Shown one piece after another: positions 9,248-30,999 of a stretch of DNA of 41,079 bases. Source of the stretch: Candidatus Caccoplasma sp. (GTDB lineage Bacteria; Bacteroidota; Bacteroidia; Bacteroidales; G3-4614); contig JAZONU010000165.1 of NCBI GenBank assembly GCA_045654605.1, positions 1 through 41,079 of the forward strand, given 5' to 3'. The notes beneath the pieces are model-generated. The model worked only from the letters and a program-made list of their open reading frames with translations, ran no database searches and had not been told where the DNA came from. The position numbers and the translations under genes are program-made. Every line of letters starts with the position of its first letter. The stretch's first letter is position 1.

Positions 9248-9264
9248 ATAAAAGGGTAATAGAA

Positions 9265-10060: not shown

Positions 10061-10061
10061 T

Positions 10062-10247
10062 ATGGAAGAACAACATTACAAGGTAGACTTTTATACAGAC
10101 GATTGCGTCATGTACATTGCTGATGAGGGGTGGTATTTTACCGATATAACTGAGTTTTACAATTACGGTAGGATAATATATGACAGTCCAAAGGTTAAGT
10201 TCAGCAAGTATTATAAGGTTAAAAGAATATTAAAAGAGGATGAGTGA
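10062..10247 (+). CDS. Hypothetical small protein
   Basis: 61-aa ORF packed between lysis genes. It overlaps the endolysin start by 8 nt. Confidence 0.45.
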   Translation: MEEQHYKVDFYTDDCVMYIADEGWYFTDITEFYNYGRIIYDSPKVKFSKYYKVKRILKEDE

Positions 10248-13496: not shown

Positions 13497-13497
13497 A

Positions 13498-14880: not shown

Positions 14881-14885
14881 AAATC

Positions 14886-17744
14886 ATGATTATCGACAAT
14901 AAGCACATAGTATCAATATATGTCAGTGGCAAGTTGCTTGAGTTGGAGAATAGCAGTTCATCCAATATACGGTTAAATGAAACAATATTCAACCCAACGA
15001 AGAGTCAGACAACACAGGCAAGTTATAGTTTTTCATTCAGTATACCGTCAACGCCTAATAATAACGAGATATTGGGGTTTGCAAATGTCCTTCCTCATGA
15101 TGGAAAGTTTTTGGCAAGGTATAATTGTGAGGTGTATGCAGATGAAACACTGATATTCAAGGGTAGTCTTTCTATCAGTGAGTTCGATCATGATAAGCAG
15201 CAATACAAGGCAAATCTTATATCATTTAAGGTGAACGACTTGGATGAGATATTTGATGATGCGGTGTTATCAGATATCCCTTGGTATGTGGACTTTCAAG
15301 GCGCTTCAACAATAAATGCGGTTAATGCTGATTATACATCAAAGTATTATTTTCCATTTGTAAGCTATGGTGTATTCCAAAAGAAACCTTATTTAACAGA
15401 TGAGGTTGGTAATGAGTATACATCAAAGTTCAATATTGACATGTACAATAGGTTTTGGGTAGAGTCATTTTACCCGTCAATGAATGTCATGGAGACGGTT
15501 AAAAAGGCGTTGGAATGGAAGGGATATACCGTTGGTGGTACAGCATTTCAAGATAGGGTTACAAGTGGGTTATTTGCATCATGCAACCTTTCAAGCGAAC
15601 AGATACCAACATATAACCTTGGTAACCCAAGATTCGGAAAGGTGGTTATTGGTGGTTCATGGAACAATGCAACACAGACAGACACTTCTTTCTACCAAGA
15701 CCTTGATTATCCGTATGAGAAGATAGGTTTTTCAACGGCAGATCTGCAGTACAATTTCAAGGGTATTGATGTATGGAATATGTGGGAAACGATGAACACC
15801 ACCAACCTATCAGAACAATATCTTTTTGACCCTGAAGAAAATTGTGTTGTTGTACCGGCAGATGGTTGGTACAGGATAAGACTTGTGGTATCTGCTGAAT
15901 TGTCAGGTTATGGAACCACATTCACAGCAGAACAATACAGAACATCAGGTGCAGCATCCGAATATACGGTTGAAAACACCACCATAACTTGCAATTTGTC
16001 AGGGCAGACACCACTTGAAATACAGTTGGTTAGGAACTACGATGAAAATATCGAACTTATCAAGGGTAAGAAGAATGTTAGATACATGAACGGAAACCCC
16101 AATGATGAGTACTACGGTCAAGATGGCGGAAGAACATCGCCTAATAAAGTAGAGTGGTACACAGAGTACCCGCATCAAAAACTATACGATGCTGAGAACC
16201 CTACAAAGGGAAATGAGGCTACTGCAAAGGCAGTTGGTTCAACATCTACGACTGACAGTCAAGGAAGAACGGGTGGAAGGGTATCATCAGACAATACAAC
16301 TATTGGTGGCGGTTCAAGGACAACTACAAGGAGAAGACCAGGACAGACAGAGCATACCATAGGATATATGCATAAGGATGGGAATAATGTCGTTATGCCT
16401 TATGACCAAAATGTATCAGAGGCGTTCATATGCGGTTTTTCTTCGATAGGTGATGGTACGGTATCTGTTATGAAAAACGGTAAGTCTTGGTACAGAGGAA
16501 ATGCCATTAAAAATAAGGTTTTGGCAAATGTAACGGGTCTTGAGTTCGTTACGAAGAGTGGTACATCATTCGTATCTGAGGATACATCTATGAATTATAA
16601 TACATATCCGGAGTCTCCTGCAAATGTATGCAATACAACACTTGGAATGTTTATGAGCGGACAGGTACATCTATGTGTCTATCTTAAGAAGAATGATATA
16701 CTTGAATTGATGGCAATACAGAGGGATTTCAGCGGACAGAAATATGTATGCAGTGCATCAACCTATTTTGAAATGGAGGCTGTATCACCCATTATTGGTG
16801 AAGAGAAATTAAGAAGCACCGGATATAACTACTATACTCCTACTGCATTCCCATATGAACTTAACCTTTCAAACTTCATGAACAATGAAATGAGGATTGC
16901 TGATTGGATTAAGCAAGTGTGCGACACACTAAATATAGAGATTGTACAAGATGGCAAGAATATCGATTTTAATGTCCGTAGAGGCATTAAAAAAGACGGT
17001 ATGGCATATATATCCATTGATGACAGAGTGAGTGACAGAGAGGCTGTAAGCAGCCGAATTAACTATCCTGCAAGGCTTGGTGCAAAGTGGAATATCAACG
17101 TTGATGAATATGGGTATGAAACAACCGTTCCTTCTGAGTGGATAAATGAAACTGATTGGGCGGATCATGGTGATAAGGGCTATGAGATTGTGCAGTTAGA
17201 TAGTGATCCGTATAACACTTCATCAGATGTGATGGATTCAAGGTTCTCATACTGTTGGTATGTTCCTTTCAACCTTATGCAGGAAGGTACATCAGGCACT
17301 CAGTTAACAACGTTAAATATTCCGGTAATTGAATTGTCAGAGTTTATGGCCGATGGGTATGGTTATGATGAGGCAATGAAACATGACGGTTATTCACTTA
17401 CTCAGAGATTTTGGTTTAGACAAAACCCATCGCAGTATACAAGGCAACTTGCAAGTTGGATGGATGAGAATGTTTATCTTGACATACCAACACCGTTATT
17501 GGATGATGTGATGATGTCTTATAAGTACACTGAGAAGAGTTTATTGACTGAATTACTCAATGTCTATCCAAGACTATCATCCAACTATGTTACCATTAAT
17601 GTGTACCTTACACCTCAAGAGTATATGCTTCTTAAAGCCGGTACAAAAGTTAGATTTAATGATGACATCTACATATGTTGTGAGATAAGTGGATTTGATG
17701 CGAGTGGTACTAACTTGACAAAGTTAAAACTTATGAAACAGTGA
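14886..17744 (+). CDS. Large tail tip or baseplate hub protein candidate
   Basis: 952 aa with an internal S/T/G/R-rich disordered stretch (STSTTDSQGRTGGRV...TTTRRRPGQ). Position before the fibre genes. Confidence 0.4.
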   Translation: MIIDNKHIVSIYVSGKLLELENSSSSNIRLNETIFNPTKSQTTQASYSFSFSIPSTPNNNEILGFANVLPHDGKFLARYNCEVYADETLIFKGSLSISEFDHDKQQYKANLISFKVNDLDEIFDDAVLSDIPWYVDFQGASTINAVNADYTSKYYFPFVSYGVFQKKPYLTDEVGNEYTSKFNIDMYNRFWVESFYPSMNVMETVKKALEWKGYTVGGTAFQDRVTSGLFASCNLSSEQIPTYNLGNPRFGKVVIGGSWNNATQTDTSFYQDLDYPYEKIGFSTADLQYNFKGIDVWNMWETMNTTNLSEQYLFDPEENCVVVPADGWYRIRLVVSAELSGYGTTFTAEQYRTSGAASEYTVENTTITCNLSGQTPLEIQLVRNYDENIELIKGKKNVRYMNGNPNDEYYGQDGGRTSPNKVEWYTEYPHQKLYDAENPTKGNEATAKAVGSTSTTDSQGRTGGRVSSDNTTIGGGSRTTTRRRPGQTEHTIGYMHKDGNNVVMPYDQNVSEAFICGFSSIGDGTVSVMKNGKSWYRGNAIKNKVLANVTGLEFVTKSGTSFVSEDTSMNYNTYPESPANVCNTTLGMFMSGQVHLCVYLKKNDILELMAIQRDFSGQKYVCSASTYFEMEAVSPIIGEEKLRSTGYNYYTPTAFPYELNLSNFMNNEMRIADWIKQVCDTLNIEIVQDGKNIDFNVRRGIKKDGMAYISIDDRVSDREAVSSRINYPARLGAKWNINVDEYGYETTVPSEWINETDWADHGDKGYEIVQLDSDPYNTSSDVMDSRFSYCWYVPFNLMQEGTSGTQLTTLNIPVIELSEFMADGYGYDEAMKHDGYSLTQRFWFRQNPSQYTRQLASWMDENVYLDIPTPLLDDVMMSYKYTEKSLLTELLNVYPRLSSNYVTINVYLTPQEYMLLKAGTKVRFNDDIYICCEISGFDASGTNLTKLKLMKQ

Positions 17745-17753
17745 TGAACGAAA

Positions 17754-17786
17754 TGGGGATATTTAAACGATATTCCCATTTTTTTT
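17754..17786 (+). terminator. Rho-independent terminator
   Basis: TGGGGATAT-ttaaacg-ATATTCCCA followed by T8. Confidence 0.8.
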
Positions 17787-17796
17787 GTCTTTCAGA

Positions 17797-17804
17797 TATG
17801 TTTA
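17797..17804 (+). promoter_or_regulatory. TATGTTTA box
   Basis: 10 nt after the terminator and 16 nt before the ATG at 17821. Confidence 0.55.
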
Positions 17805-17820
17805 TAATAAAAAGAATACA

Positions 17821-19140
17821 ATGCCGGTTTCAATATACGAATTAGACTGCAAGTATCAGAGACTCAATCTTAAGAAAGAGGTGTATCTTATCCCTGAGAG
17901 TCATCTTAAGAGAATACACATAGATAACGGTGCAGCATACATAGACGGTCTTGACACACTGCCAACACATATATCAGTTGAGGAAGTGACTCTTAACGAG
18001 GAAACATCGTTGGACGAGAGATTTAGGTTCTCAAAAAACCTTACATTCAAGGTTAGGGGTAGAAAGGACTTGGATTTCTTGGATGAAAAGTACTATGCCA
18101 TTGTGGTTACAGAAGAAGATGTAAAGTATTGCGTTAACGTTGAGTTCCCATCAACGGTCACATACGCATATACACTGTCACAAGACACCGATGAGACACA
18201 ATTTACGCTTCGTACAGAGTCAAATCACCCAACTCTAAGGCTTGCTACTGACATATCATCAGCAATCGACTGTAAGGGCTATTTTCTGTCTTGTGTAAAG
18301 GAAATAAGGCTCTTGGAGAAGTATAAGGCAGCACTTAGAGAAGGACATGGTGTAACGAGTTCTGAGGCTTTTAAGAAGGTTGACTACCTAAAGGAGTCAA
18401 TAACATTCACAGAGGCTTATAACGGCAACAATGTTACCACAACCCTTTCATTTGACATCCCACTTTCAGAATATAAAAGCAGTTGGCATTACAATTTACT
18501 TGAATTTATATACAATACCTATTCTCTTATATTAGAGGCATGTGGTGGTTATCATTATGCAGGGTTTAACTTTGGATTAGAGCCTGCATTTACCGTTAAT
18601 GGCGATGGTGATAACGCTATGATAAGCATTGTACTTACAGAGGTTTCAGACAGAGGTGGCAAGTTCTATGTCAACCCTCTCCCTGAGGATATCAACAGTT
18701 CAACTACCTATGTATTTACAGATGAAAACGGTGGTTATATATGTATAGAGGGTGGACTTGCACAGTATACACTTCAGAAGGAACTTAACTTCCTTGATAA
18801 CCCTACCGGCAATTACAGAGCCTTAGTTGGGTATGAGGGTATGTTTCCCGATCTGAACATTGTTGGCACATTCAGCGAGGTTATGATGTTCCAAACCGAT
18901 AAATGCGGTGGTGAAGGTGGTGGTGGAATGACAGGTGGAACACTTCCTGACATCATCGAACTACAGAGTGGACAATGTAAGTCATACACATTCTCAGCAG
19001 TGTGCGATTGGCATGTATCAGAAATCACATCCGATCTTACTGTAACCCCAATGAGCGGTGTTGCAAACAGACTGTATACAATAACGGTATGTAAGAATGG
19101 GGATTCAGGTTATAATCCCGGTGGTGGAACAACTGATTAA
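17821..19140 (+). CDS. Tail or baseplate protein with a C-terminal BACON-like domain
   Basis: The track start 17785 lies in the terminator T-run; the first ATG is at 17821. The C-terminal GGTLPDIIELQSGQCKSYTFSAVCDWHVSEITSDLTVTPMSGVANRLYTITV is repeated at the N-terminus of the next gene. Confidence 0.5.
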   Translation: MPVSIYELDCKYQRLNLKKEVYLIPESHLKRIHIDNGAAYIDGLDTLPTHISVEEVTLNEETSLDERFRFSKNLTFKVRGRKDLDFLDEKYYAIVVTEEDVKYCVNVEFPSTVTYAYTLSQDTDETQFTLRTESNHPTLRLATDISSAIDCKGYFLSCVKEIRLLEKYKAALREGHGVTSSEAFKKVDYLKESITFTEAYNGNNVTTTLSFDIPLSEYKSSWHYNLLEFIYNTYSLILEACGGYHYAGFNFGLEPAFTVNGDGDNAMISIVLTEVSDRGGKFYVNPLPEDINSSTTYVFTDENGGYICIEGGLAQYTLQKELNFLDNPTGNYRALVGYEGMFPDLNIVGTFSEVMMFQTDKCGGEGGGGMTGGTLPDIIELQSGQCKSYTFSAVCDWHVSEITSDLTVTPMSGVANRLYTITVCKNGDSGYNPGGGTTD

Positions 19141-19157
19141 AATAAAAGATAAATAAG

Positions 19158-20351
19158 ATGAGTTCATTTTTCGAAATATCATATTGCGACCAAATAAAAC
19201 ATGTTGATGTGGTAGATAAGATACCTCAAAGTGGTGGAACATTGCCATCAACAATTACATTTGATGGTATAGGCTGTAAAAACTATACCTTCTCTGCAAA
19301 CTGCGATTGGGATATGACATCTACAAGCCCTAATATAACCGTAACACCAAGCACCGGTGCTGCAAATGTATTGTATGACATTTCAGTATGCTATATCGGT
19401 GAAGGAAATAAGGTTGTAGTGACAGATTTAAGTGGGAATACCTATTCAATACCATGCGATGATACGAATACGCTTAATTGGGAATATTATGAGTATCAAA
19501 AGACAAGCATCTCAGGGGGTTATAGAAACATTACTGAAGCAGTGATTGGTGATTGTGTTCAGGTATTAAGTGCAAGTTGTTTTCAGGATTGTAGAAATTT
19601 GGATTGCAGTTCGATATCAGGCGCAACAGGATTAAGAGAGATTGAAATGGCTGCATACGAAAATACACATGTTTATAGAAACAGACAACAAATATATGGA
19701 GGCACTTTAAACCTGCCAAATGGACTACAGAAGGTTGGTTCAAGGGCTTTTGGTTATACAGGGTTCAATAACCTTAATATACCTGCTTCGTTGACCGATA
19801 TTGCTCATGGATATGGTGGTACAAATAACTATATGATAAGACACCCATTTGTGGGTATGACGGCACTTGGAACTTATGAATATGAAGAATATTCAGGGCT
19901 TACCTATTCAATAACGGTTGATACGGGAAATACTGTTTATGATTCAAGGAATAACTGCAATGCGATAATGGAAACTGCTACAGATACACTGATATTTGGT
20001 TGTCCTAATACCGTTATACCTGATGAAACAAAGATAATTGGAGTTTATGCATTTGTAGGTGGGGCTGAGTATTCAGGTAAGACAATAACAATACCAAGCA
20101 GTGTAACTGAAATACAAGTATCAGCATTTGAAGGATGCATATTGGATTCTGTAACAATTCTTGCCACAACACCACCAATAATGAGAGGTAGCAATTATAC
20201 AGGCACAACAGGTAATAATTATGCGTTTTACGCCGGTTATGGTGTAACACCATACCCTATTTATGTACCAAGTGAGAGTGTGGAAACATATAAGGCAGCA
20301 GATGGATGGACTTACTATGCAGATAGAATAACAGCAATACCAAACAGTTAA
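19158..20351 (+). CDS. BACON-like plus LRR_5 (BspA-like) receptor-binding candidate
   Basis: N-terminal GGTLPSTITFDGIGCKNYTFSANCDWDM...TVTPSTGAANVLYDISV. LRR_5-type units (SASCFQDCRNL, NTVYDSRNNCNAIMETATDTLIFGC). C-terminal cap motif TTPPIM...PIYVPSESVETYKAADGW. Confidence 0.65.
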   Translation: MSSFFEISYCDQIKHVDVVDKIPQSGGTLPSTITFDGIGCKNYTFSANCDWDMTSTSPNITVTPSTGAANVLYDISVCYIGEGNKVVVTDLSGNTYSIPCDDTNTLNWEYYEYQKTSISGGYRNITEAVIGDCVQVLSASCFQDCRNLDCSSISGATGLREIEMAAYENTHVYRNRQQIYGGTLNLPNGLQKVGSRAFGYTGFNNLNIPASLTDIAHGYGGTNNYMIRHPFVGMTALGTYEYEEYSGLTYSITVDTGNTVYDSRNNCNAIMETATDTLIFGCPNTVIPDETKIIGVYAFVGGAEYSGKTITIPSSVTEIQVSAFEGCILDSVTILATTPPIMRGSNYTGTTGNNYAFYAGYGVTPYPIYVPSESVETYKAADGWTYYADRITAIPNS

Positions 20352-20356
20352 GAAAA

Positions 20357-22051
20357 ATGGCAAGACAAGCAACGATTATAGTAAATTATTGTAATGTATC
20401 AGGGACGGTGACAACCATATTCCCCGATGGGGGTACAAACAAGTGCTTACCAAATGGTTCAAACTATGAGGTAACTGCTGCTTTACAGACACTTACGGTT
20501 AATGTGCTTTGCCCCATAAGTGCAATTACGGGTGATTTGCAGAACACCTTTACATCTTCTCAGATAACATTTACCATACCTCAGAATGATTCAACGTCTC
20601 AGAGGATATTTACAGAGGTTGTGACATTTGTTGACGGTACAACTGCAACAATTTACATCACTCAGAAAGGATACAGTTCAAAATATGTACGGGTTCCAAT
20701 ATCTGAGCATTATATGTGCTATCAAGGCAATAAGTACTATGCAAACAGACAGATGATATCCTATGACGGTGGTGTAAATTACATATGGAAAGAACCACCC
20801 GTTTATGCCCGTTCAGCGACAATCTATTCAAGCGGTGATACTGACTGTTATGAAGGTGATTGTGAGTGGGAGGATTTGGTGGGACAAACCTACTGTCTTT
20901 CAGGCACTCTGTATTCTGTTCAGCAAAAGGTATGCGACGGTGTATATACTGAGGAAAAGAGACTGAACCAAGTGATAGGAGAGTGTACAGACCCTGCAGA
21001 AGGCTATGAATACAGATGGGTACTTTCAACGGGTCTTACCATATGCGGTGAGAATACAAGTGGTGGTACAGGACCAACACCTGACACAGGTGATACACCA
21101 ACGGTTGTTACTGATAAGTGGATTGAAAATGGATATACATGTAGTGGATATGACAAGTATATCGAAGAGGTGCATGTATATTCAACTGACGGTGAGATAT
21201 TTTTCCCTGAATACCCACCTGAGGTACGACTTGGTGCATTGGTAGAAGAAAATAGTGAGTATTGTGGCTATGAACTAAAAACAAAGTGGCAAGATGACGG
21301 TGATGAGGATTGCTACGGTACAACGCTAAGGCATGTGCTTGTTAAGTACGTCTCAGACGATATGGGTCAGACTTGGACAAAGGCTGTTCCTGAAGAGACA
21401 AAGCCGGGCGATATCATCGAGACAATGAGCCCTACATGCGGATACATAGATTGGGAGGCATATAAGTACATTGGTGTATATGATGGCGATGCAACAAATC
21501 CACACCTTGTAGACTATAACGGCTCATATGTAGTTACAACTGCTGATACAAAACCAAGTGGTGAGGATATATCACACCTTACAAGGATAATAGTAGGCTC
21601 TGCTGTTACTGCCATAAGTGATTACTGCTTCGAAAGTGCTGTAAATCTTACTGAAACGGGAACACTTCCAAATACACTAAGGAGCATTGGTACCGGTGCA
21701 TTTGCATATTGTACGTCATTGCCTAACAGTGGAATAACACTTAACGAGGGATTGCAGACGATAGGAACGAATGCATTCAACCACTGTACAAGCCTTACAA
21801 GTATGAGAATACCATCAACGGTGACAAGCATTGGGCAAGGTGCTTTTTGGGGCTGTACAAACATAACAAGCATCACATTCGTAGGAAATACACCACCTAC
21901 ACTGCCAAATACATCATTTGATGACCTTCCAAGCAATTATGTGATATATGTTCCTTATGCAGCATTAACGACATATCAAACGGCTTATAGTTGGTGTAGT
22001 TCGCATATACAGGGTTCAATAACCCCAAATCCTAATGTACCAACAATGTAA
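20357..22051 (+). CDS. Cys-bounded repeat plus LRR_5 receptor-binding candidate
   Basis: The C-terminal third carries LRR_5 units (IGTGAFAYCTSL, IGTNAFNHCTSLTSMRIPSTVTSIGQGAFWGCTNITSI) and the cap NTPPTLP...VIYVPYAALTTYQTAYSW. Confidence 0.65.
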   Translation: MARQATIIVNYCNVSGTVTTIFPDGGTNKCLPNGSNYEVTAALQTLTVNVLCPISAITGDLQNTFTSSQITFTIPQNDSTSQRIFTEVVTFVDGTTATIYITQKGYSSKYVRVPISEHYMCYQGNKYYANRQMISYDGGVNYIWKEPPVYARSATIYSSGDTDCYEGDCEWEDLVGQTYCLSGTLYSVQQKVCDGVYTEEKRLNQVIGECTDPAEGYEYRWVLSTGLTICGENTSGGTGPTPDTGDTPTVVTDKWIENGYTCSGYDKYIEEVHVYSTDGEIFFPEYPPEVRLGALVEENSEYCGYELKTKWQDDGDEDCYGTTLRHVLVKYVSDDMGQTWTKAVPEETKPGDIIETMSPTCGYIDWEAYKYIGVYDGDATNPHLVDYNGSYVVTTADTKPSGEDISHLTRIIVGSAVTAISDYCFESAVNLTETGTLPNTLRSIGTGAFAYCTSLPNSGITLNEGLQTIGTNAFNHCTSLTSMRIPSTVTSIGQGAFWGCTNITSITFVGNTPPTLPNTSFDDLPSNYVIYVPYAALTTYQTAYSWCSSHIQGSITPNPNVPTM

Positions 22052-22075
22052 TAAATGTAATAATAAAAGACAAAG

Positions 22076-24682
22076 ATGGGAGTTTATACTTTATATAGGG
22101 CATATTATAAGCAGAGAAGACCTTCAGGCAGCACTCAGAGTTGGCAGACAGTTTTACCAATGGAGATATCATACACTGACGGATCGGGACATACAACGGT
22201 TATTGAAGAAAACAGTACTCATTGTGGCTATGAGCCTCCAATAGAGCCTATTTATCGTTGGGTGAATATACCGATTAACCAAGACTATGACTGTGATACA
22301 ACCACATATACCAAGTACTACAAGCAGAAGAGACAGGTATCATACGATAATGGTGCAACGTACAATGATGTATCTCCGGCTCAGTATCAAAGGGGTTCAG
22401 CATATGAAACGAACAGTATTGATTGTGGATATATTGATCCAACGGGATATAAGGTAATATTAACTTATAGGGATGGAACAACGAAATATATACCTTGCAA
22501 TAGTTCTACCGAACTGACAGAAAGCGAAGTGAGGAGTGCTTATTCGGGCGAAGTTGTTAATGCTGTTGTGGGTAGTTGCGTAACAAAACTTTATCGATCT
22601 TTTTATAACTGTAAGTGCTTAACAAGTGTAACCATACCAAGCAGCGTAACTAAGATTGGTTTGGGCGCGTTTGATGGCTGTTCTTGTCTTACTAACGTTA
22701 ATATCCCTAATAGCGTAACGACAATCGATGACAGCGCATTTGATGATTGTAGCAGTCTGACAAGCATAATTATACCTAACAGTGTTACAAGCATTGGCGG
22801 TAGTGCATTCTTCGGCTGTAGTGGTTTAACAAGTGTTACAATGCCTGACAGCATTCCTATTGGTACAAAATGTTTCGCTAATTGCGTTAATTTACAAAAT
22901 ATAAATTCAAACAGAGTAAAATTAAATCAAGGGGCTTTTGAGGGATGTAAAAGTCTTAGTTCAATCAATATTGACAATAGTGTAGATACGATTTTCACCA
23001 AAGCGTTCAATGGTTGTTCAAGTCTTACAAGTGTGACAATACCAAGTGGAGTTACAAGCATTGGCGATAGTGCATTCAAGGACTGTAGTAATTTAACAAG
23101 TATAACTATACCAACCGGTGTAACTATAATCAGTTACTATGCTTTTGAAAATTGCAGCAATTTAACAGAGATAATCATTCCAAATAGCGTAACAACTATT
23201 TGGTACGGGGCATTTAATGGCTGTTCAAGTCTTACAAGCATAACTATACCAAGCAGTGTGACGGCAATAACAAGTGGAAGTGCTATAGAAGATTGGAACA
23301 TCATACAAGGATGTACTTCTCTCATAAGTGTTGTTGTGGATCAGAATAATACGGTATATGATTCAAGGAATAACTGCAATGCCATTATCAAAACCGACAC
23401 TAATACATTGATAGGGGGTTGTAAGACAACCGTTATTCCAAGTGGCACTATATCAATAGGGCAGTGTGCTTTCAGAAATAATGAAGGCGTAACAAGTATG
23501 ACTATACCACAAAGTGTTAATACGATAGGTAGGTATGCTTTCAGCGGTTGTACGGGTTTGATAAGTGTAAGTATCCCTAACGCATTAAGCAGTTTTGGCG
23601 TTGGAGCATTTGAGAATTGTAGTAGTTTAACAGGTATAACAATCCCTGATAGTGTTAGTTCAATACCATCATTCTGTTTCTGTGGTTGCAGTAGTTTAAG
23701 AAGTATAAACATCCCAAGTCGGGTGACTTCACTTTCAAACAATGCATTTGATGGGTGTTATAGTGTTACTTCAATAACGGTTGACGCAAACAATACAGTG
23801 TACGACTCAAGGGATAATTGCAACGCAATTATTGAAACCGACACTAATGCTTTGATATATGGTTGTAAAAATACGACTATTCCTAATACGGTGACAACGA
23901 TCCGCGGACGCGCATTCTATGAAATATTGGGAATGACTTCTATTGATATACCATCTTCAGTTACTTACATCGGTGATAACGCATTTGGAGGTTGTTATAA
24001 TGTTACTTCAATAACGGTTTCTAATAGCAATACCGCATATACCTCAAATGGGAATAACGGTATATTCTCAAAGAATGGTAAATCGTTAGTAGTTGGGTGT
24101 AGTACTACTGTTATTCCTAATGGTGTTACAAGTATTAACAATAATGCGTTTTTTGGATGTAAAAACCTTACAAGCATAACCATACCAAACAGTGTTACAA
24201 GCATCGGTAATTTTGCTTTTGACCATTGTTCAAGTCTTACAAGTGTAACAATTCCGGATAGTGTAACGAGTATAGGAACTGAGTCGTTTGGATATTGTAC
24301 GAGTCTTCAGAGTGTGATAATAGGCGATGGGGTTGTTACCATACCATTAAACGCATTTATGGATTGTCCTAACTTGTCAAGTGTTACTTTTGGGGATAGT
24401 GTAACGAGTATAGGTCATTATGCTTTTACTCGCTCTAATCTTACAAGTGTGACATTACCAAGCAGTGTTACAACACTTGGTGAAGACGCTCTAAGGAATA
24501 AGAACGAAGATGTAGCGCAAGAAATAACATGGCTCGCAACTCAACCTTCGCAATCATCATTGTTTTTTAATTTTAACGCATGTGGAAGTGTTATTTATGT
24601 GCCATCATCTGCGGTAGAATATTATAAAAACAATTTCCGTTATGGGTATTATAGTGACTTTTTCAGAGCCATTGGCAGTTAA
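22076..24682 (+). CDS. Large LRR_5 (BspA-like leucine-rich repeat) fibre or adhesin protein
   Basis: 868 aa with more than 20 units of the type IPxSVTSIGxxAFxGCSSLTSITIP, two YDSR(N/D)NCNAII(K/E)TDTN(T/A)LIxGCK modules, and the cap VIYVPSSAVEYYKNNF. Confidence 0.8.
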   Translation: MGVYTLYRAYYKQRRPSGSTQSWQTVLPMEISYTDGSGHTTVIEENSTHCGYEPPIEPIYRWVNIPINQDYDCDTTTYTKYYKQKRQVSYDNGATYNDVSPAQYQRGSAYETNSIDCGYIDPTGYKVILTYRDGTTKYIPCNSSTELTESEVRSAYSGEVVNAVVGSCVTKLYRSFYNCKCLTSVTIPSSVTKIGLGAFDGCSCLTNVNIPNSVTTIDDSAFDDCSSLTSIIIPNSVTSIGGSAFFGCSGLTSVTMPDSIPIGTKCFANCVNLQNINSNRVKLNQGAFEGCKSLSSINIDNSVDTIFTKAFNGCSSLTSVTIPSGVTSIGDSAFKDCSNLTSITIPTGVTIISYYAFENCSNLTEIIIPNSVTTIWYGAFNGCSSLTSITIPSSVTAITSGSAIEDWNIIQGCTSLISVVVDQNNTVYDSRNNCNAIIKTDTNTLIGGCKTTVIPSGTISIGQCAFRNNEGVTSMTIPQSVNTIGRYAFSGCTGLISVSIPNALSSFGVGAFENCSSLTGITIPDSVSSIPSFCFCGCSSLRSINIPSRVTSLSNNAFDGCYSVTSITVDANNTVYDSRDNCNAIIETDTNALIYGCKNTTIPNTVTTIRGRAFYEILGMTSIDIPSSVTYIGDNAFGGCYNVTSITVSNSNTAYTSNGNNGIFSKNGKSLVVGCSTTVIPNGVTSINNNAFFGCKNLTSITIPNSVTSIGNFAFDHCSSLTSVTIPDSVTSIGTESFGYCTSLQSVIIGDGVVTIPLNAFMDCPNLSSVTFGDSVTSIGHYAFTRSNLTSVTLPSSVTTLGEDALRNKNEDVAQEITWLATQPSQSSLFFNFNACGSVIYVPSSAVEYYKNNFRYGYYSDFFRAIGS

Positions 24683-24690
24683 CTAAATAA

Positions 24691-24698
24691 TATGTTTA
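24691..24698 (+). promoter_or_regulatory. TATGTTTA box
   Basis: 20 nt before the ATG at 24719. Confidence 0.5.
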
Positions 24699-24718
24699 TA
24701 TAAAAAGAAGATAACTAT

Positions 24719-25492
24719 ATGAATAATTGCGATTATAACATCTACGACTATTGGGGCTGTTGTAACTCCATTGACCTTTCCCACTATGCCACTGATTCAG
24801 ATATTGACAAACTGTGGGATGCGCTTGAGGCTATTTCAATAAGCGGTGAATGCGAATGCGATTTAACAGAGATTGAAGCCCAATTATCTGCAATACAGGC
24901 TTCGATCATAAGCCTTGCTGATAGAGTATCCACCCTTGAGGGAATAATGGCTCAGAAGGCAGATTCCTCAGCCCTTACAGAGATATGGGATGCGCTCTCA
25001 GAATGTTGCAGTGGAACACCAACGCCACCTGAGCCTCCAACCCCAACAGGCACAACCAAAAAGTTCGTAATAACGGTATCAGGAGGCTCAAACATTGAGG
25101 CTGATTGTGATACAGACTACTACTTGGACTCAACACAGACCAAGCAAGACTCAAGTACATTTATGAGATACCTTACCGCTGAGATTGGGGACTGTATAAC
25201 TGAGATCGGTGATGGTGTATTTCAAGGCTGCTTTAACATGACAAGTATAACCGTACCAAGTGGAGTGACTGACATACATAACTACGCATTCTCAACAACT
25301 CATGTGGAGGCACCCGTAACACATTTGGATATCTATATCTACGCTACGATACCACCAACATTACATGATGATGGTGAGCCTCAATTTGGGTATTTCCCTG
25401 AAGATTGTACAATATATGTCCCAAGTGGCTCATTAACGGCATATCAAAGTGCATGGCCTGACATTGCATCGAAAATTCATGCAATTGTCTAA
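24719..25492 (+). CDS. Coiled-coil, proline linker and single LRR_5 cap protein (fibre-associated)
   Basis: Cys-rich N-terminus, heptad-like LSAIQASIISLADRVSTLEGIMAQK, PTPPEPPTPTG linker, then IGDGVFQGCFNMTSITVPSGVTDI and the cap IPPTL...TIYVPSGSLTAYQSAW. Confidence 0.55.
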   Translation: MNNCDYNIYDYWGCCNSIDLSHYATDSDIDKLWDALEAISISGECECDLTEIEAQLSAIQASIISLADRVSTLEGIMAQKADSSALTEIWDALSECCSGTPTPPEPPTPTGTTKKFVITVSGGSNIEADCDTDYYLDSTQTKQDSSTFMRYLTAEIGDCITEIGDGVFQGCFNMTSITVPSGVTDIHNYAFSTTHVEAPVTHLDIYIYATIPPTLHDDGEPQFGYFPEDCTIYVPSGSLTAYQSAWPDIASKIHAIV

Positions 25493-25503
25493 ATCAAGTT
25501 AAG

Positions 25504-25535
25504 GGCTTATCAGTTTATGGTAAGCCTTTTCTTTT
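25504..25535 (+). terminator. Rho-independent terminator
   Basis: GGCTTATC-agtttat-GGTAAGCC followed by TTTTCTTTT. Confidence 0.7.
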
Positions 25536-25540
25536 GAAAG

Positions 25541-25548
25541 TATGTTTA
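25541..25548 (+). promoter_or_regulatory. TATGTTTA box
   Basis: Follows the terminator directly; 19 nt before the ATG at 25568. Confidence 0.5.
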
Positions 25549-25567
25549 AAGAAATAAGCAATCAGAT

Positions 25568-25744
25568 ATGATATACAGTCAAATAAACGGGATGGAAGGT
25601 TACTATGAGTTGGTTGCTGATAACGGTGATAAGATGCTTATACCGTCAACCAATATAATCATAGTTAACGATGGGAGTGGTTTGCTCTCTATAAAAAACA
25701 CAGCCTCAAGGTGTACAGTTGCACTTGTGAGAGATAATAATTAA
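25568..25744 (+). CDS. Small hypothetical protein (58 aa, below the ORF-track cutoff)
   Basis: Hand translation: MIYSQINGMEGYYELVADNGDKMLIPSTNIIIVNDGSGLLSIKNTASRCTVALVRDNN-stop. It is preceded by a TATGTTTA box at the usual spacing. Confidence 0.4.
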   Translation: MIYSQINGMEGYYELVADNGDKMLIPSTNIIIVNDGSGLLSIKNTASRCTVALVRDNN

Positions 25745-25771
25745 TAATAATTGAGATAGTTTCAAAATATT

Positions 25772-27484
25772 ATGTCTGCAAATAAGATTCAATTAACAAA
25801 AAACGATGAGTCAGTACTCTTTACCTTCACTGACTCCAAACATTACCTTACCGGTAATGGACGAATTGAAGTGCCTTTGAACAGCCTATCGCTTGTTATC
25901 GATTCAAGCGACATGGTGACATTTAGAAAGGCTGCATCAAATGACATCTTCGTATCAGCACCTATCAGCGACTTTGGAATGTCAAAGGCTGAAATAGAGG
26001 AGTGGTACGCAGAGAATATGGTGGGTGCATCCGGAGGTGGTGGTATTGACCCTGAGACACTTGCTGAATTGGTATCAAGCGCTGAATATGTATCATCTTC
26101 TTCTACCATCGATTTTAAGAATGTCGACGGTGAGGTGATAAGCACAATAAACGCAGAACCTTTTATCACCGATGGTATGGTGGATAATGTTCAGATAAGC
26201 GGTAATAACCTTGTCATAACCTTTAATGTTGATGCGGGTAAACAACCTATTAGTATTCCACTGTCAAGCATATTTGACCCAAGCAACTACTATGATAAGA
26301 GCGCAACAGATACGCTTCTCAGTGGTAAGGTGGCTGTAACTGATTACAACACATATACGGCTGCTACCAATACCGCATTAAGTGGAAAGGCTGATGTATC
26401 TGCTGTAACGGCTATCGCTGATTCACTTAGTGGTAAGCAAGATACATTGCTATTCTATACCGAGGAAGACAATACTGAGGACGGTACAAAGGATGCTATG
26501 ATTGAGACGGTTATTGAAGACACTGAGAACGGTGTAACAAAAACTGCATATGTAGAGTCACTTGTAAATGATTATTCTCCATTTGCTGAAATATATGCTT
26601 CTACTGAAGTTAACAATAGCGAAGAGTCATATCAAAAAAGTGCTGATGTATATGTTGATTCAGAAGATGGCCTTTATCTTGGTTATCAGACACAAGACGA
26701 TAATGAACAGACTTACTCTGAAGCTAAATTAGAAATTGGTGCTAATGGTATTTCTCTAAATGTAGATAACGGAGAAGATATTGTATCCTTTAACGTCACC
26801 GCTGATGGTGTTGATATTGATGGTGATGCCGTTGTTACAGAATCCCAACTTATTGACTATGCTACGGTAGCATCACTTAGTGGAAAGCAAGACACCCTCA
26901 TTGCCGGTAGTGGAATAACCATAAGTGGAAATGTTATCAGTGCTGATGGTGGAAGTAGTGATCCTAACAAGTTGGATGTAACGGCATTTACCGCATACAG
27001 TGCTGCAACTTCTACCGCAATAAGTGGAAAGGCTAACGCAAGCGATGTGGTGTCAATATCCGATTATGATGAGGCTCAGAGAGTGACTGCAACAGCCCTT
27101 AATGACCTAAATGATAGGAAACAAGACACCCTTGTAGCCGGTAGTGGAATTACCATAAGTGGAAATGTTATCAGTGCTGATGGTGGAGGTGGTTCGATAA
27201 CAATTGACCAAACCCTTGACAGTGGTTCGACAAATGCTGTTGCAAATAGCGCGATAACGGATGCAATAGATGCTGTTTCTGATGCATTAAGTGGAAAGGT
27301 GGATACATCTGCTGTAACAAGTTCTGTAACAAGCGGTTCAACAGATGTTGTAACAAGTGGTGGTGTATATGAGCAGATGGGTGGTCTGAAACTTAGGAAA
27401 CTAACACAAGCCCAATATGATGACCTTGTTACGAAGGATGATAATACCCTTTACATCATAACTAATGTTGTTAATAACGCTTAA
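25772..27484 (+). CDS. Tail fibre protein
   Basis: Repeated xxALSGKADVSAV / SLSGKQDTLIAGSGITISGNVISADGG segments, and the C-terminal LTQAQYDDLVTKDDNTLYIITN typical of fibre tips. Confidence 0.7.
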   Translation: MSANKIQLTKNDESVLFTFTDSKHYLTGNGRIEVPLNSLSLVIDSSDMVTFRKAASNDIFVSAPISDFGMSKAEIEEWYAENMVGASGGGGIDPETLAELVSSAEYVSSSSTIDFKNVDGEVISTINAEPFITDGMVDNVQISGNNLVITFNVDAGKQPISIPLSSIFDPSNYYDKSATDTLLSGKVAVTDYNTYTAATNTALSGKADVSAVTAIADSLSGKQDTLLFYTEEDNTEDGTKDAMIETVIEDTENGVTKTAYVESLVNDYSPFAEIYASTEVNNSEESYQKSADVYVDSEDGLYLGYQTQDDNEQTYSEAKLEIGANGISLNVDNGEDIVSFNVTADGVDIDGDAVVTESQLIDYATVASLSGKQDTLIAGSGITISGNVISADGGSSDPNKLDVTAFTAYSAATSTAISGKANASDVVSISDYDEAQRVTATALNDLNDRKQDTLVAGSGITISGNVISADGGGGSITIDQTLDSGSTNAVANSAITDAIDAVSDALSGKVDTSAVTSSVTSGSTDVVTSGGVYEQMGGLKLRKLTQAQYDDLVTKDDNTLYIITNVVNNA

Positions 27485-27501
27485 AATAATATATAAGAAA
27501 T

Positions 27502-28533
27502 ATGGCAAATAAATATATACAAGCATATGCAACTGAGGCGGCTTATAACGCTGCAAGCAAACCAAGTCCTAATGTATCGTTCGTATATGCAACAGATAAG
27601 TTATACTACAACGGTGAAGAACATCAAATGCCTATTGATTACTCGACAAAGTATCTGACATTTGTCGCGTTGGAAGACGGAACGATTAGCTGTAGTTATA
27701 ATTATAGAAATCTTTATTATTCATTGAATAGCGGTACTACTTGGACAAATTATACCGGTCAAGTGACGGTACAGAGTGGTAGTACTATTATGTGGAAGAG
27801 CAACGCCCCAATTGTTACTTATGCAAAAAACATCTCATTTTCTTCAACGGGGTTGATTAATATTGAAGGGAATGCACTGTCTCTTATTTACGGTGATGAT
27901 TTTATAGGTAAAACAACCATTAGTACAGCGAAGAACCAAGAAGACTTCAAGGGGGCATTTGGCGCGTTAAAAATAGTGAGCGCTGAGAACCTAATTTTAC
28001 TCGCTGCTAACACAAGTAGTTGTTATCAAGACGCTTTTGCAGGGTGTTCAACAATGACAATACCGCCAAAACTTCCTGCAACGGAATTGGGAGGTACTTG
28101 TTATGGTAATATGTTCGCAAGTTGTACGGGTCTAACTACTGCTCCTGAGCTTCCTGCAACTACATTGGCGCAACAATGCTATTGGAGAATGTTCTATGGT
28201 TGCACAAGTCTAACTACAGCACCTGAACTTCCTGCAACTACATTGGCAAATTGGTGTTATAATTATATGTTCAGTGGTTGTACAAGTCTAACAACAGCAC
28301 CTTCAATACTTCCTGCAACTACATTGACAACTTCTTGTTATAGTTATATGTTCAATGGTTGTACAAACATTAATTCCGTAACTTGCCTTGCAACTTCGAA
28401 TATAATTAGTTCAAATATTGGTTATTGGCTTGATGGTGTTGCTGCAACCGGTACATTCACAAAGAAAGCGGGAGTCACTTGGCCAAGTGGAGCAAGTGGT
28501 ATCCCTACGGGTTGGACTGTGGTAGAGGTCTAA
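27502..28533 (+). CDS. DUF285/BspA-type 26-residue-repeat receptor-binding protein
   Basis: Four units LPATxLxxxCYxxMFxGCTSLTTAPE (28072 onward), then the conserved end VTCLAT...W..GVAATGTFTK...GIPTGWTVV. It is a paralogue of 29503..30999. Confidence 0.75.
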   Translation: MANKYIQAYATEAAYNAASKPSPNVSFVYATDKLYYNGEEHQMPIDYSTKYLTFVALEDGTISCSYNYRNLYYSLNSGTTWTNYTGQVTVQSGSTIMWKSNAPIVTYAKNISFSSTGLINIEGNALSLIYGDDFIGKTTISTAKNQEDFKGAFGALKIVSAENLILLAANTSSCYQDAFAGCSTMTIPPKLPATELGGTCYGNMFASCTGLTTAPELPATTLAQQCYWRMFYGCTSLTTAPELPATTLANWCYNYMFSGCTSLTTAPSILPATTLTTSCYSYMFNGCTNINSVTCLATSNIISSNIGYWLDGVAATGTFTKKAGVTWPSGASGIPTGWTVVEV

Positions 28534-28562
28534 CGCGTTAACCTAACCTAAATAACTAAAAG

Positions 28563-28603
28563 CCCATCACCATCAAATAAAAGGGTGGTGGATGGGTTTT
28601 TTT
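28563..28603. terminator. Bidirectional terminator between convergent genes
   Basis: CCCATCACCATC / GGTGGTGGATGGG stem (one bulge), flanked by an A-run on the left and T7 on the right. Confidence 0.7.
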
Positions 28604-28654
28604 AATAATAATATAACAATTATATATTTTATGAGTATAAAAATTGGCGATACG

Positions 28655-29452
28655 TTATGATGCGTACCGCCATTTATATTTTCCTGCACTTATCTTTTTT
28701 CCTCTGCAACATTTAGAAATGTCACCATCATCTATGCCGGTTTGTCTTTCTGCCTCCATTATTGATTCGTACCTTGCTACAAGTGTCGTACCGTCAAGTT
28801 CTAATTGTTCAACTGCTTTTAGTAACCAATATGGTTTTCTCCCCTTTCTTTTTTCACTCATCTTTTTCTTGGCTTCTTCTGAGTGATGTTTGCCAAGCAT
28901 ACTTTGTTCTCCTTTATTTGATTCACTAATCTTCATACGAGTTTCTTCTGAAGTGGTATGACCTTTTTTCGTTTCGCTCATTTTTTTTATAGACTCTTCT
29001 GAGTGATGCTTACCGTACATTGGATTCTTTTCACCTTTCAAGCCTCTATGGTGCAAACTGATATGCTCACTATGTGTTAGCCAACACAAATTTGATATTG
29101 AGTTATTCCTCGGATTATGGTCTTTATGATGAACAACCAACCGTTCACTGCTGTCTAATAATTCATTTGGTATTGGCACAAACATTTCGGCTATCAAACA
29201 ATGAAGATGTTTTGAAATTCGTTTTCCATTTTCTAAGATGAAGCCATATTTTTTATATCCGCCTTTATTAGTACTCCCATCAACTTTCTTCAAGTCACCA
29301 TTCTTTTTAATTCTCCATAGCGACCAATCATTTTCTCCCTCTCCCTTTCCGAGTAGGTGGTCATCTAAACCATCGATATTATAAAAAGTATAATTATTCA
29401 TATAACGCGTTATTTTATAAAATATAGTGTTTTGAACGGTTTTTTCAAACAT
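28655..29452 (-). CDS. HNH homing endonuclease (NUMOD4-like N-terminus, HNH, three NUMOD3-like units, NUMOD1-like HTH)
   Basis: VVHHKDHNPRNNSISNLCWLTHSEH is the HNH motif. GEKNPMYGKHHSEESIKKMSE, KGHTTSEETRMKISE and LGKHHSEEAKKKMSE are the repeats. The C-terminus is FxSxxEAERQTGIDDGDISKCCRGKKISAGKYKWRY. An alternative start is the ATG at 29401. Confidence 0.9.
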   Translation of the reverse strand: MFEKTVQNTIFYKITRYMNNYTFYNIDGLDDHLLGKGEGENDWSLWRIKKNGDLKKVDGSTNKGGYKKYGFILENGKRISKHLHCLIAEMFVPIPNELLDSSERLVVHHKDHNPRNNSISNLCWLTHSEHISLHHRGLKGEKNPMYGKHHSEESIKKMSETKKGHTTSEETRMKISESNKGEQSMLGKHHSEEAKKKMSEKRKGRKPYWLLKAVEQLELDGTTLVARYESIMEAERQTGIDDGDISKCCRGKKISAGKYKWRYAS

Positions 29453-29472
29453 TTTCCTTTAATCTCGAAAAG

Positions 29473-29480
29473 TATGTTTA
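29473..29480 (+). promoter_or_regulatory. TATGTTTA box
   Basis: 22 nt before the ATG at 29503. Confidence 0.5.
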
Positions 29481-29502
29481 TAATGTAAAACAATAGTTTA
29501 TT

Positions 29503-30999
29503 ATGAGTATAAAAATTGGTTCGAACGATATAAGCAAGATATACCTTGGCTCTACAGAGATTGAGAAGATATACCAAGGTAGCACCGTCATATATTCAGG
29601 AGGTAGTGAACCGACACCACCAAGTTATGATACACAATACCTTACTTTTAGGGCTTTGGAGAGTGGTACGTTCAAATTCAGTGGTACAACGCCAACAACG
29701 GCAAATACATTGCAGTACTCAGTGGACAGCGGTGCAACATGGAATACCCTTGCCTTTAATACTGATAGCCCAACGGTACAAAGTGGTGGTACAATTATGT
29801 GGAAGGCAAGTGGATTGGCAACGGACACAAATAATGGAACATTGAAGTTTATTTCAACGGGTCGTTTTGAGGCTGAGGGAAATGTTATGTCACTCATAAG
29901 CGGTGATACATTCACAAGCGCAACAACAATACCAAGTAATAATTATTTCCATTGGTTATTTAATGGATGTTCGGGATTGACGAGTGCGGAAAACATGGTA
30001 CTCCCTGCAACTACATTGGCAGTGGGTTGTTATAGTCAAATGTTCCAAGGTTGTACAAGTCTAACAACCCCGCCACAGCTTCCTGCAACCACATTGGCAA
30101 ATAGTTGCTATTCATATATGTTCAATGGTTGTACGTCTTTGGCAACTGCGCCTGAACTTCCTGCTACTACATTGGCAGATTGGTGTTATAGCGGTATGTT
30201 CCAAGGTTGTACAAATCTAACAACGGCACCACAGCTTCCTGCAACCACATTAACAAATAGTTGCTATCAAAATATGTTCTATGCCTGTACAAGCCTAACA
30301 ACAGCACCTGAACTTCCTGCAACAACATTAGCAGATTATTGTTATTATAGTATGTTCGAAAATTGCTCAAGCCTAACTACAGCACCACAACTCCCTGCAA
30401 CTACGTTGGCAGAATGTTGTTATCAAGGTATGTTCGAAAATTGCTCAAGCCTAACTACAGCACCACAACTCCCTGCTACCACATTGGCAGATTATTGTTA
30501 TTATAGTATGTTCGACAGTTGTACAAGCCTTAATTCCATTACTTGTCTTGCAACGGATATAAGTGCAGTCGATTGTACCACAAGTTGGGTGAATGGTGTT
30601 GCTTCAACAGGTACATTTACGTCTGCCGTAGGAATGGCTGATTGGAGGTGTGGCAAAAATGGTATACCTACCGATTGGACGGTTGTAGGTGGTGAGCCTT
30701 GCCAAGGTGGTGGCGATGTAGTGGTTGAATTGAATGCTGATGTAGACCTCAATCAATGGTGCGGTGTCGAATTGCCGCAATATTTGATAAATTTTGATCG
30801 CATGATTAATGGTAGTTTATATTTTAATGATAATGACTCAGATGCTTGTGATGGGAGTTTTTATATGGGGCAAGAGGTAGACATGAGATTTTCTTCTCCT
30901 CCAATTGACTTGGATAATTACAGATACCTATGTGCTTTGCAACCGAACTTTTTTGACTATCCCAACACTCTCTACTTCTCAGATGACCCTGACGCATAA
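29503..30999 (+). CDS. DUF285/BspA-type 26-residue-repeat receptor-binding protein with an extra C-terminal domain
   Basis: Seven LPATTLAxxCYxxMFxxCxSLTTAPQ/E units, the conserved ITCLAT...WVNGVASTGTFT...GIPTDWTVV, then a roughly 95-aa extension absent from 27502..28533. Confidence 0.75.
   Translation: MSIKIGSNDISKIYLGSTEIEKIYQGSTVIYSGGSEPTPPSYDTQYLTFRALESGTFKFSGTTPTTANTLQYSVDSGATWNTLAFNTDSPTVQSGGTIMWKASGLATDTNNGTLKFISTGRFEAEGNVMSLISGDTFTSATTIPSNNYFHWLFNGCSGLTSAENMVLPATTLAVGCYSQMFQGCTSLTTPPQLPATTLANSCYSYMFNGCTSLATAPELPATTLADWCYSGMFQGCTNLTTAPQLPATTLTNSCYQNMFYACTSLTTAPELPATTLADYCYYSMFENCSSLTTAPQLPATTLAECCYQGMFENCSSLTTAPQLPATTLADYCYYSMFDSCTSLNSITCLATDISAVDCTTSWVNGVASTGTFTSAVGMADWRCGKNGIPTDWTVVGGEPCQGGGDVVVELNADVDLNQWCGVELPQYLINFDRMINGSLYFNDNDSDACDGSFYMGQEVDMRFSSPPIDLDNYRYLCALQPNFFDYPNTLYFSDDPDA
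30001..30546 (+). repeat. In-frame 78-nt (26-codon) tandem repeat array, seven units
   Basis: Units start at 30001 with a 78-nt period. 30352..30398 and 30430..30476 are identical over 47 nt. Confidence 0.85.

Follow-up and report, generated by a model that had tools for sequence, protein, structure and literature searches.

The stretch analysed here, referred to as the window, is the whole of contig JAZONU010000165.1 (41,079 nt, 39% G+C), which carries an uncultured phage. Between positions 19158 and 30999 it holds six genes for leucine-rich-repeat (LRR) proteins of the BspA type, with a fibre gene and an HNH-NUMOD3 endonuclease gene among them. The best-supported explanation, and one that we hold with moderate confidence, is that the LRR proteins are tail adhesins that act as exchangeable binding heads on the phage tail. 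In at least eight related loci, a protein of the tail-tube fold runs on into LRR units within a single open reading frame (ORF) of 820 to 1216 aa, and this fusion is the strongest evidence that such LRR modules are physically part of the tail. We propose that 19158-30999 is a hypervariable adhesin and fibre slot in the tail module of an uncultured siphovirus-like phage, in which the binding units would be LRR solenoids of two kinds, one of the BspA/LRR_5 type and the other a 26-residue, DUF285-like type.

Repeat content and architecture of the array

Genes are designated by their start positions and lie on the plus strand unless noted otherwise. Measured against the gathering score of Pfam LRR_5 (PF13306; 27.7 bits for the whole protein), the products of 19158 (57.8 bits, E = 1.4e-15), 20357 (84.5 bits, 7e-24), 22076 (481.6 bits in six stretches, 1e-146), 24719 (31.7 bits, 1.6e-7), and 29503 (34.5 bits, 2e-8) are above the threshold, and that of 27502, at 24.3 bits, is below it. 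The last two genes of the array, 27502 and 29503, are paralogues, 43% identical over 380 aa. Hidden Markov models (HMMs) built on the window's own repeats counted eight 26-residue units in 29503 and five in 27502, and the DNA is periodic at 69 nt and 78 nt, in step with units of 23 and 26 residues. The product of 22076 matches solved BspA-type LRR structures from gut Bacteroides, Faecalibacterium, Treponema, and pneumococcus (best PDB entry 4fs7, 8e-55). The LRR parts of the window proteins are 35 to 57% identical to bacterial surface proteins, and 29503 has more than 8000 homologues, many of them on contigs of 100 to 370 kb.

An initial annotation of this DNA had described about 12 kb of consecutive LRR genes beginning at 17821 and occupying some 29% of the element. 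Its gene coordinates agree with ours, and six LRR genes do follow one another over 19158-30999, a span of 28.8% of the contig; the starting point has to be moved, as the gene at 17821 encodes a tandem tail-tube-fold protein that is neither an LRR protein nor a fibre. The range of 1 to more than 20 units of the type IPxSVTSIGxxAFxGCxSLTSI was borne out by the window-built HMMs, with about 2, 4, 25, and 2 units of 23 residues in 19158, 20357, 22076, and 24719, respectively. The C-terminal cap ascribed to these four genes (TPPxL...IYVP...Y...W) is complete in three of them (19158, 20357, and 24719); in 22076 it is degenerate, with TQPSQ and IYVP present and the tryptophan missing. A search for LRR_5, which the annotation had called for, recovered all six LRR genes except 27502, and a search for BACON domains gave no Pfam hit (PF13004/PF19190) in the N-terminal immunoglobulin (Ig)-like domains; a fold resemblance was found in 20357 only, where residues of about 30-110 of a predicted model resemble the BACON domain of BoGH5 (3zmr, root-mean-square deviation 3.0 over 90 columns, E = 0.017). 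For 27502 and 29503, the 26-residue repeat is real, and the family assignment did not hold: no window protein matched DUF285 (PF03382) at E <= 0.01, and against TIGR02167 (cut-off, 30 bits) both fell short, 29503 at 29.0 bits and 27502 at 18.8 bits. PF03382 is carried by four of the listed homologues of 29503. Judged by their repeats, the two proteins are related to DUF285/TIGR02167 and are not members by the curated thresholds.

The six LRR proteins differ most in what precedes the repeats. LRR protein 1 (19158-20351) begins with an Ig-like domain that shares 50% identity with the one at the C terminus of tube-fold protein 17821; after it come irregular LRR_5 units and a TPPIM/IYVP cap. In LRR protein 2 (20357-22051), the BACON-like Ig domain is followed by three 57-residue hairpin repeats that each contain an Asp-box (SxDxGxTW) and end in CGY, and then by the four LRR units and the cap. 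A Foldseek search with its model returned the Bacteroides Ig-plus-LRR surface proteins 4fdw and 4fd0; the model is unreliable at residues 211-364, so that the shape of the Asp-box/CGY repeats cannot be read there. LRR protein 3 (22076-24682) begins with two Asp-box/CGY repeats and continues into the long run of 23-residue units, and LRR protein 4 (24719-25492) consists of a predicted coiled-coil, heptad-rich N terminus, a proline-rich linker, and a minimal LRR with its cap. The repeat of about 57 residues, W..Y.C.G..Y....S.DGG.TW.....P....G...E.NS..CGY, lies at 20660-21450 and 22076-22435, has no Pfam match, and occurs both in the stems of LRR proteins and in the tube-fold extensions of relatives.

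An Asp-box beta domain stands before the 26-residue units in both proteins of the second kind. LRR protein 5 (27502-28533) consists of this domain and its five units of the form LPATTLAxxCYxxMFxGCTSLTTAPE; LRR protein 6 (29503-30999) has N-terminal KIYLG strands ahead of the domain and, after its eight units, an acidic, Cys-containing tail of about 100 aa. The tail fibre gene (25772-27484) encodes a conserved N terminus of about 100 to 230 aa, a repetitive shaft, and a Phage_tail_C tip (PF24243; residues 539-564, 45.1 bits against a threshold of 23.7, 6e-12), in keeping with its earlier description as a classical fibre. Its N terminus is 58 to 66% identical in relatives, in which the remainder is replaced. 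A conserved ORF of 58 aa (25568-25744) precedes the fibre gene, and the close relative L048 has a 61-aa gene at the same place.

The HNH-NUMOD3 homing endonuclease gene (28655-29452, minus strand; HNH_3, 44.2 bits; NUMOD3, 69.8 bits) lies in a cassette, 28608-29519, bracketed by 40-nt direct repeats that are 75% identical (28608-28647 and 29480-29519). Because both copies hold ATGAGTATAAAAATTGG, the start of LRR gene 29503, the cassette was apparently inserted just upstream of that gene, duplicating its start. In L047 and L048, which are close relatives, and in others besides, HNH genes occur elsewhere in the array, and these differing insertion sites, together with the flanking repeats, suggest that the cassette is mobile.

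The tube-fold platform and exchange among relatives

The gene preceding the array (17821-19140, 439 aa) was assigned the ATG at 17821 as its true start because its homologues begin there. In an AlphaFold2 (AF2) model built with 36 homologues (pLDDT 80.3), its product is predicted to have a pair of tube-type domains, another conserved beta region, and an Ig-like domain at the C terminus. All of the top five PDB matches found by Foldseek (E = 1e-4 to 3e-3) are proteins of tail tubes or tip rings, led by pb6 of the T5-like phage DT57C (8hqz_p, 1e-4), the DT57C tail tube (8hrg, 2e-4), and 7qg9_G, a 298-residue chain of the T5 tail tip (4e-4); further matches were to an Acinetobacter phage major tail protein and then to tube proteins of Mu, SaPI1, Sf11, and a gene transfer agent (GTA). 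Among predicted viral structures (BFVD), the matches are named "minor tail protein," "tail subunit," and "major tail protein." Like the T5-type proteins pb6/p140 (8hrg, 8hqz, 7qg9), 17821 has two tube-fold domains in one chain and then an Ig-like domain, with a Foldseek probability of 1.0. It differs from them in that identity is 8 to 11% and TM-scores are 0.35 to 0.5, in that this phage has a separate tube paralogue of 178 aa, and in that the C-terminal end of its relatives grows to 400 to 800 residues made up of LRR or other modules, an extension that pb6/p140 are not known to have.

That paralogue, a single tube-fold protein encoded after the capsid gene (11819-12355), is 53 to 65% identical in relatives. 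HHalign of the two families gave a probability of 96.5% (E = 7e-10; residues 11-158 of 11819 against 146-274 of 17821), and on this alignment 11819 is a paralogue of domain 2 of 17821 and probably the major tail tube protein. Since it exists, a role in the tip ring is favoured for 17821 over one in the main tube. Two large tail-core genes fill 13498-17744, encoding proteins of 460 aa (13498) and 952 aa (14886), which we presume to belong to the distal tail or baseplate. They are about 45% identical in 15 IMG/VR contigs and had no Pfam, PHROG, or PDB match; Pfam searches with all family members also gave nothing usable. Sequence and profile searches of the PDB returned nothing for the families of 17821, 14886, 13498, and 11819. 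A fusion of 17821 with 19158 by frameshifting or read-through is ruled out by a TAA at 19143-19145, which closes the frame of 19158 before its ATG.

Relatives were found as 44 IMG/VR loci by means of the 952-aa tail protein and the alignment of the 17821 family, and 17 of them were mapped gene by gene. All 17 share one order on one strand: capsid, 11819 homologue, tube-fold protein, a variable run, portal, and DUF6712. The run holds LRR genes, Phage_tail_C fibres, small ORFs, and, in some loci, HNH genes; between the capsid-11819 pair and the portal, every mapped locus has one to six LRR ORFs and Phage_tail_C fibres. Members of the 17821 family in these relatives are 620 to 1280 aa long, and in some loci other than those with the LRR fusion the tube-fold protein runs on into non-LRR domains. 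In one database homologue (P0038), the tube fold, Ig domains, LRR_5 units, and an NPPSL/IYVP/Y/W cap like that of the window proteins stand in one chain of 736 aa.

Three contigs (L047 to L049) have the window's gene order and reveal how the array changes, a comparison for gene presence, absence, and swapping that the initial annotation had advised and that found LRR genes truncated, replaced, and with exchanged heads. The two tail-core proteins are 90 to 93% identical in L047 and L048, and the tube-fold protein is 92% identical in L047, where it is 695 aa long, and 52% identical in L048. The LRR genes of the close relatives are 48 to 89% identical, truncated, or replaced, and the portal is 59% identical. 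Gene 19158 is 89% identical in L047 and is reduced by deletion to a 161-aa form in L048. The slot of 22076 is filled by a 400-aa version in L048, its DNA conserved for the first 370 nt or so only, or else by an HNH gene and an LRR gene of the 26-residue type. Gene 24719 is 62% identical in L048, a gene of the 23-residue type occupies the slot of 27502, and two unrelated genes occupy that of 29503.

DNA similarity to relatives breaks off at domain boundaries, and L047 has 776 nt extra exactly where the Ig-like domain of the tube-fold gene ends. Among homologues of 20357, P0048 is 95% identical in the N-terminal 110 residues that form the stem and 41% identical in the LRR head, and P0052 shows the reverse, with a stem at 36% and a head at 88%. 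Such a pattern, in which the stem is kept and the head exchanged, is what phage receptor-binding proteins usually show.

These comparisons suggest two ways in which the LRR solenoids would be mounted. In many relatives they would form a C-terminal extension of the tandem tube-fold protein; in the window, and in relatives as well, free-standing LRR proteins would be held on the virion by conserved N-terminal stems, which consist of a coiled coil, of hairpin repeats with Asp-boxes, or of a domain of the Ig/BACON-like kind. Variation in the heads arises by exchange at domain boundaries, by changes in repeat number, and by replacement of whole genes, and the scattered mobile HNH endonuclease genes may promote this variation. 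A diversity-generating retroelement was rejected as a source of variation: no unassigned ORF of reverse-transcriptase size was present, a check made with no dedicated model. The array would function in adsorption, providing multivalent, exchangeable binding of host surface structures beside the conventional fibre.

Upstream motif and genome context

The motif TATGTTTA occurs 11 times in the window, always on the plus strand, where 3.9 copies are expected, and none of 100 shuffles reached 11. The copies start at 2009, 4963, 9240, 10775, 12432, 17797, 24691, 25541, 29473, 31097, and 32950, and ten of them lie 20 to 60 nt upstream of gene starts. The genes preceded by it include those for the tape measure, capsid, portal, and protease, as well as 12458 and 2026; within or next to the array it precedes 17821 (17797-17804, after a terminator-like hairpin at 17750-17782), 24719 (24691-24698), the small ORF before the fibre gene (25541-25548, after a terminator-like hairpin in the segment 25501-25744), and 29503 (29473-29480). 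Several copies sit after a hairpin and a T-run. The motif is similar to TAnnTTTG, the -7 element of Bacteroidota, and may be a late promoter. In the eight proteins of the interval, no stretch looks like a signal peptide or membrane span, features that the membrane proteins 9241 and 9512 do show, and the dockerin, SLH, T9SS, or BACON modules carried by bacterial homologues of the LRR parts are lacking in the window proteins.

Protein searches of the window identified a large terminase (2854-4125), a capsid-like protein (10836-11786) encoded just before tube-fold gene 11819, a portal (31129-32370) followed by a DUF6712 protein gene, and an XkdF-type protease/scaffold (32977-34005); a replication-initiator-like gene (37900-38595) and an integrase-like gene (39445-40743) lie on the minus strand. 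Read directly, the sequence of the 1390-aa protein encoded at 4990-9162 shows long coiled coils and hydrophobic segments, and its C terminus is rich in glycine. Because this protein reads as a tape measure, we take the phage to be long tailed and siphovirus-like; no sheath gene was recognised among the window genes. We considered and dropped the reading of the phage as a podovirus whose gene order is T7-like and whose fibre anchor is 17821, which the tape measure and the tube fold of 17821 contradict.

Among GenBank phages, neither near-identity searches with the two halves of the window nor tblastn with 29503 and the 952-aa protein found a relative, and an exact-sequence look-up of the 952-aa protein gave no record. 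A Shine-Dalgarno match, even a partial one, is present at just 5 of 34 start codons, and the sole isolated-phage relatives of the portal are those of Nonlabens phages, at 22% identity; because of these two features, the host is probably a member of the Bacteroidota. Two database homologues fall in metagenome-assembled genomes (MAGs) labelled Methanobrevibacter and Lachnospiraceae, most likely phage contigs that were binned into those MAGs.

Several other features of the contig deserve mention. An exact 119-nt direct repeat at 629-747 and 40961-41079, the second copy being the contig end, defines a cycle of 40,332 nt, and the integrase-like gene sits just inside the right copy. It looks as though the genome is circular or concatemeric and the assembly entered it by way of a variant branch of the graph; prophage attL/attR sites are a possible alternative. 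Bases 1-628 hold an endonuclease-VII/HNH-like ORF with homologues inside related phage genomes. Upstream of the tape-measure gene, at 4113-4915, a 232-aa gene overlaps a 91-aa ORF in another frame (4640-4915), as is typical of tail assembly chaperones made by programmed frameshifting. The stretch 9241-10671, between the tape-measure and capsid genes, is a likely lysis cassette; it encodes two small membrane proteins and one protein of 143 aa in which an M15-peptidase-like motif, SxHxxGxAxD, was recognised by eye only.

A run of 12- and 18-nt T-rich direct repeats within the replication-initiator-like gene (38029-38214) is iteron-like and could mark an origin. The early region on the minus strand has diverged direct repeats at 35093-35167/37603-37677 (76%) and 35816-35904/36704-36792 (84%), the latter pair being the 3' ends of two paralogous genes (35914-36699 and 36712-37401). 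In the wider clade (L001 to L044), the homologues of 13498 and 14886 stand before the tape-measure gene and the protease stands before the capsid gene; in the window, as in L047 and L048, the 12458-17744 block has 11819 before it and the tube-fold gene after it, and the window's protease comes after DUF6712.

Competing explanations and known systems

The initial annotation had presented the array as the tail appendages of a prophage, as opposed to prophage cargo. The appendage part is supported indirectly by slot synteny, the tube fusions, the mosaicism of stems and heads, the missing export signals, and an upstream motif that the capsid, portal, and tape-measure genes also have, with the amendment that the first gene of the interval encodes a tube-fold protein; the trimers of which the annotation spoke are an assumption. 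The prophage part is uncertain: an integrase-like gene is present, but a search of 185,579 species genomes gave a 44-kb MAG contig as its sole match and no integrated relative. The integrase-like gene, the similarity of the LRR parts to bacterial surface proteins, and the great abundance of homologues of the 26-residue type on chromosome-sized contigs are what lysogenic-conversion cargo would lead one to expect, namely, surface adhesins made for the bacterial host from a prophage. However, the LRR proteins have no signal peptide, lipobox, T9SS domain, or other cell-surface anchor, which, with the missing bacterial surface modules, argues against conversion proteins; their genes lie inside the structural block, on its strand and with a motif common to the capsid and portal genes, and relatives fuse LRR units to a tail protein. 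Given also the want of integrated relatives, we judge conversion cargo to be very improbable. Most of the free-standing LRR genes might alternatively be spare cassettes, silent or weakly used donors for recombination into the expressed tube-fold or stem genes, and would then not be virion parts at the same time. The Ig-like domain shared by the end of 17821 and the start of 19158, the fused form in relatives, the insertion in L047 exactly at the 17821-19158 junction, and the HNH genes adjoining the cassettes, with a duplication that holds a gene start, would all suit such a role, but the six ORFs are intact with start contexts of their own, and three of them, 24719 and 29503 included, stand directly behind the shared motif. 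Moreover, no invertase or retroelement is present (all ORFs of 260 aa or more are accounted for bar one of 261 aa of unknown function), and the repeated handles, at 50% identity at the protein level, are too diverged for frequent homologous recombination, so that we find this explanation improbable.

Two further readings accept the LRR modules as virion parts and assign them differently. In one, they would decorate the virion for its environment (mucus, plant fibre, or animal glycans), a role proposed for the Ig-like domains of phage capsids and tails, and raise the encounter rate, leaving host range to fibre 25772 and the tail tip. In its architecture the platform protein matches T5 pb6/p140, in which the Ig-like end is a decoration; Ig-like decoration domains are known from T5 pb6 and lambda gpV and figure in the "adherence to mucus" model, BspA-type proteins of bacteria attach to host matrix and to other cells, and a canonical Phage_tail_C fibre is present as well. 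The rapid, head-specific exchange seen in close relatives is nevertheless the pattern expected of host-range determinants in an arms race, and six different heads exceed the needs of a generic adhesin; we regard this reading as unlikely. In the other, which we also consider doubtful, the 17821-type protein would be the major tail tube subunit, so that in relatives with versions of 800 to 1200 aa the whole tail of about 200 nm would be coated by hundreds of LRR arms in the manner of a bottle brush, and the free-standing LRR proteins of the window would dock via the duplicated Ig-like domain. Were this so, the tail surface would be a modular, exchangeable adhesin scaffold.

The tail-adhesin explanation has points against it as well. 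The phage is uncultured and known from genes alone, LRR solenoids are usually monomeric and lack a classical fibre-tip fold, and TATGTTTA is a sequence regularity, not a mapped promoter. The window's own tube-fold protein ends in an Ig-like domain only, so that the fusion evidence comes from relatives at 30 to 41% identity, and 13498 and 14886 matched no protein of known function from which the baseplate architecture could be derived. The sequences themselves show the domains, the tube fold of 17821, the fusions, the synteny, the mosaicism, the upstream motif, and the missing export signals; we infer the presence of the LRR proteins in the virion, their ligand, the attachment of the free-standing ones, for which the model of 20357 is of limited help at its unreliable residues, and the role of 17821 in the tip ring as opposed to the whole tube. 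The six proteins may determine host range, as the broad receptor repertoire that the initial annotation suggested, or may serve as accessory adhesins.

LRR modules that are fused to a tail protein and swapped like receptor-binding heads point to a repeat-solenoid class of phage adhesin in gut or rumen communities, whose specificity could shift by repeat number and head swapping, not by point mutation or retroelements. If binding is their function, LRR-rich viral contigs could be correctly annotated, uncultured phages that apparently infect Bacteroidota would gain a handle for host prediction, and LRR heads would offer a compact, monomeric scaffold for strain-specific binding reagents. BspA-type LRR proteins have been studied as bacterial and protozoan adhesins, and we know of no characterised phage that uses them as tail adhesins. 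In full-text literature searches, no account of phage tail components made of BspA-type LRR proteins was found; LRR_5 ORFs in other records of uncultured gut phages are all annotated as hypothetical, and the matching PHROGs families (phrog_18805, 35892, and 9915) are of "unknown function." A rumen virome paper reported an LRR-rich viral cluster, there taken for eukaryotic viruses, and a preprint on phage Goslar described predicted LRR ends on putative host-recognition proteins (bioRxiv 10.64898/2026.04.21.720040). The chimallivirus DUF7941 proteins of that preprint resemble the window proteins in having predicted LRR or carbohydrate-binding ends behind a virion-attachment module; the phage family, attachment module, and LRR type are all unrelated.

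The window proteins share with BspA-type surface proteins (Tannerella forsythia BspA, Treponema LrrA/TpLRR, pneumococcal PcpA, and Bacteroides 4fs7/4fdw/4fd0) the 23-residue unit, an irregular "VDxxNxxYxSxDG" unit, and the C-terminal cap, and for 4fdw and 4fd0 the fold match includes the Ig-plus-LRR arrangement. They differ in lying in a phage structural block, in having neither a signal peptide nor a cell-surface anchor, and in N-terminal stems that are common to related phages only. In siphophages of Lactobacillus and Lactococcus, "evolved" distal tail (Dit) proteins and BppA/BppU baseplates carry carbohydrate-binding modules (CBMs) inserted in tail-tip proteins. Sequence and profile comparison gave no match to Dit or BppU, the sole hit being one relative at E = 0.012; the likeness is in layout, with binding modules grafted onto a tube-fold tail-tip protein and accessory binding proteins encoded just downstream, and the difference is in the modules, which here are LRR solenoids and not CBM or galectin folds. 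Phages with multiple receptor-binding proteins, such as those with CBA120-type branched tailspikes and the Klebsiella phage K64-1 with its many depolymerases, likewise have consecutive genes with conserved N-terminal adaptors and exchangeable C-terminal binding parts, but their heads are trimeric beta-helix enzymes, whereas those of the window appear to be nonenzymatic repeat solenoids. Set beside these systems, the array is best seen as a modular set of phage adhesins that uses an unusual fold and is linked to a display platform of the tube-fold kind.

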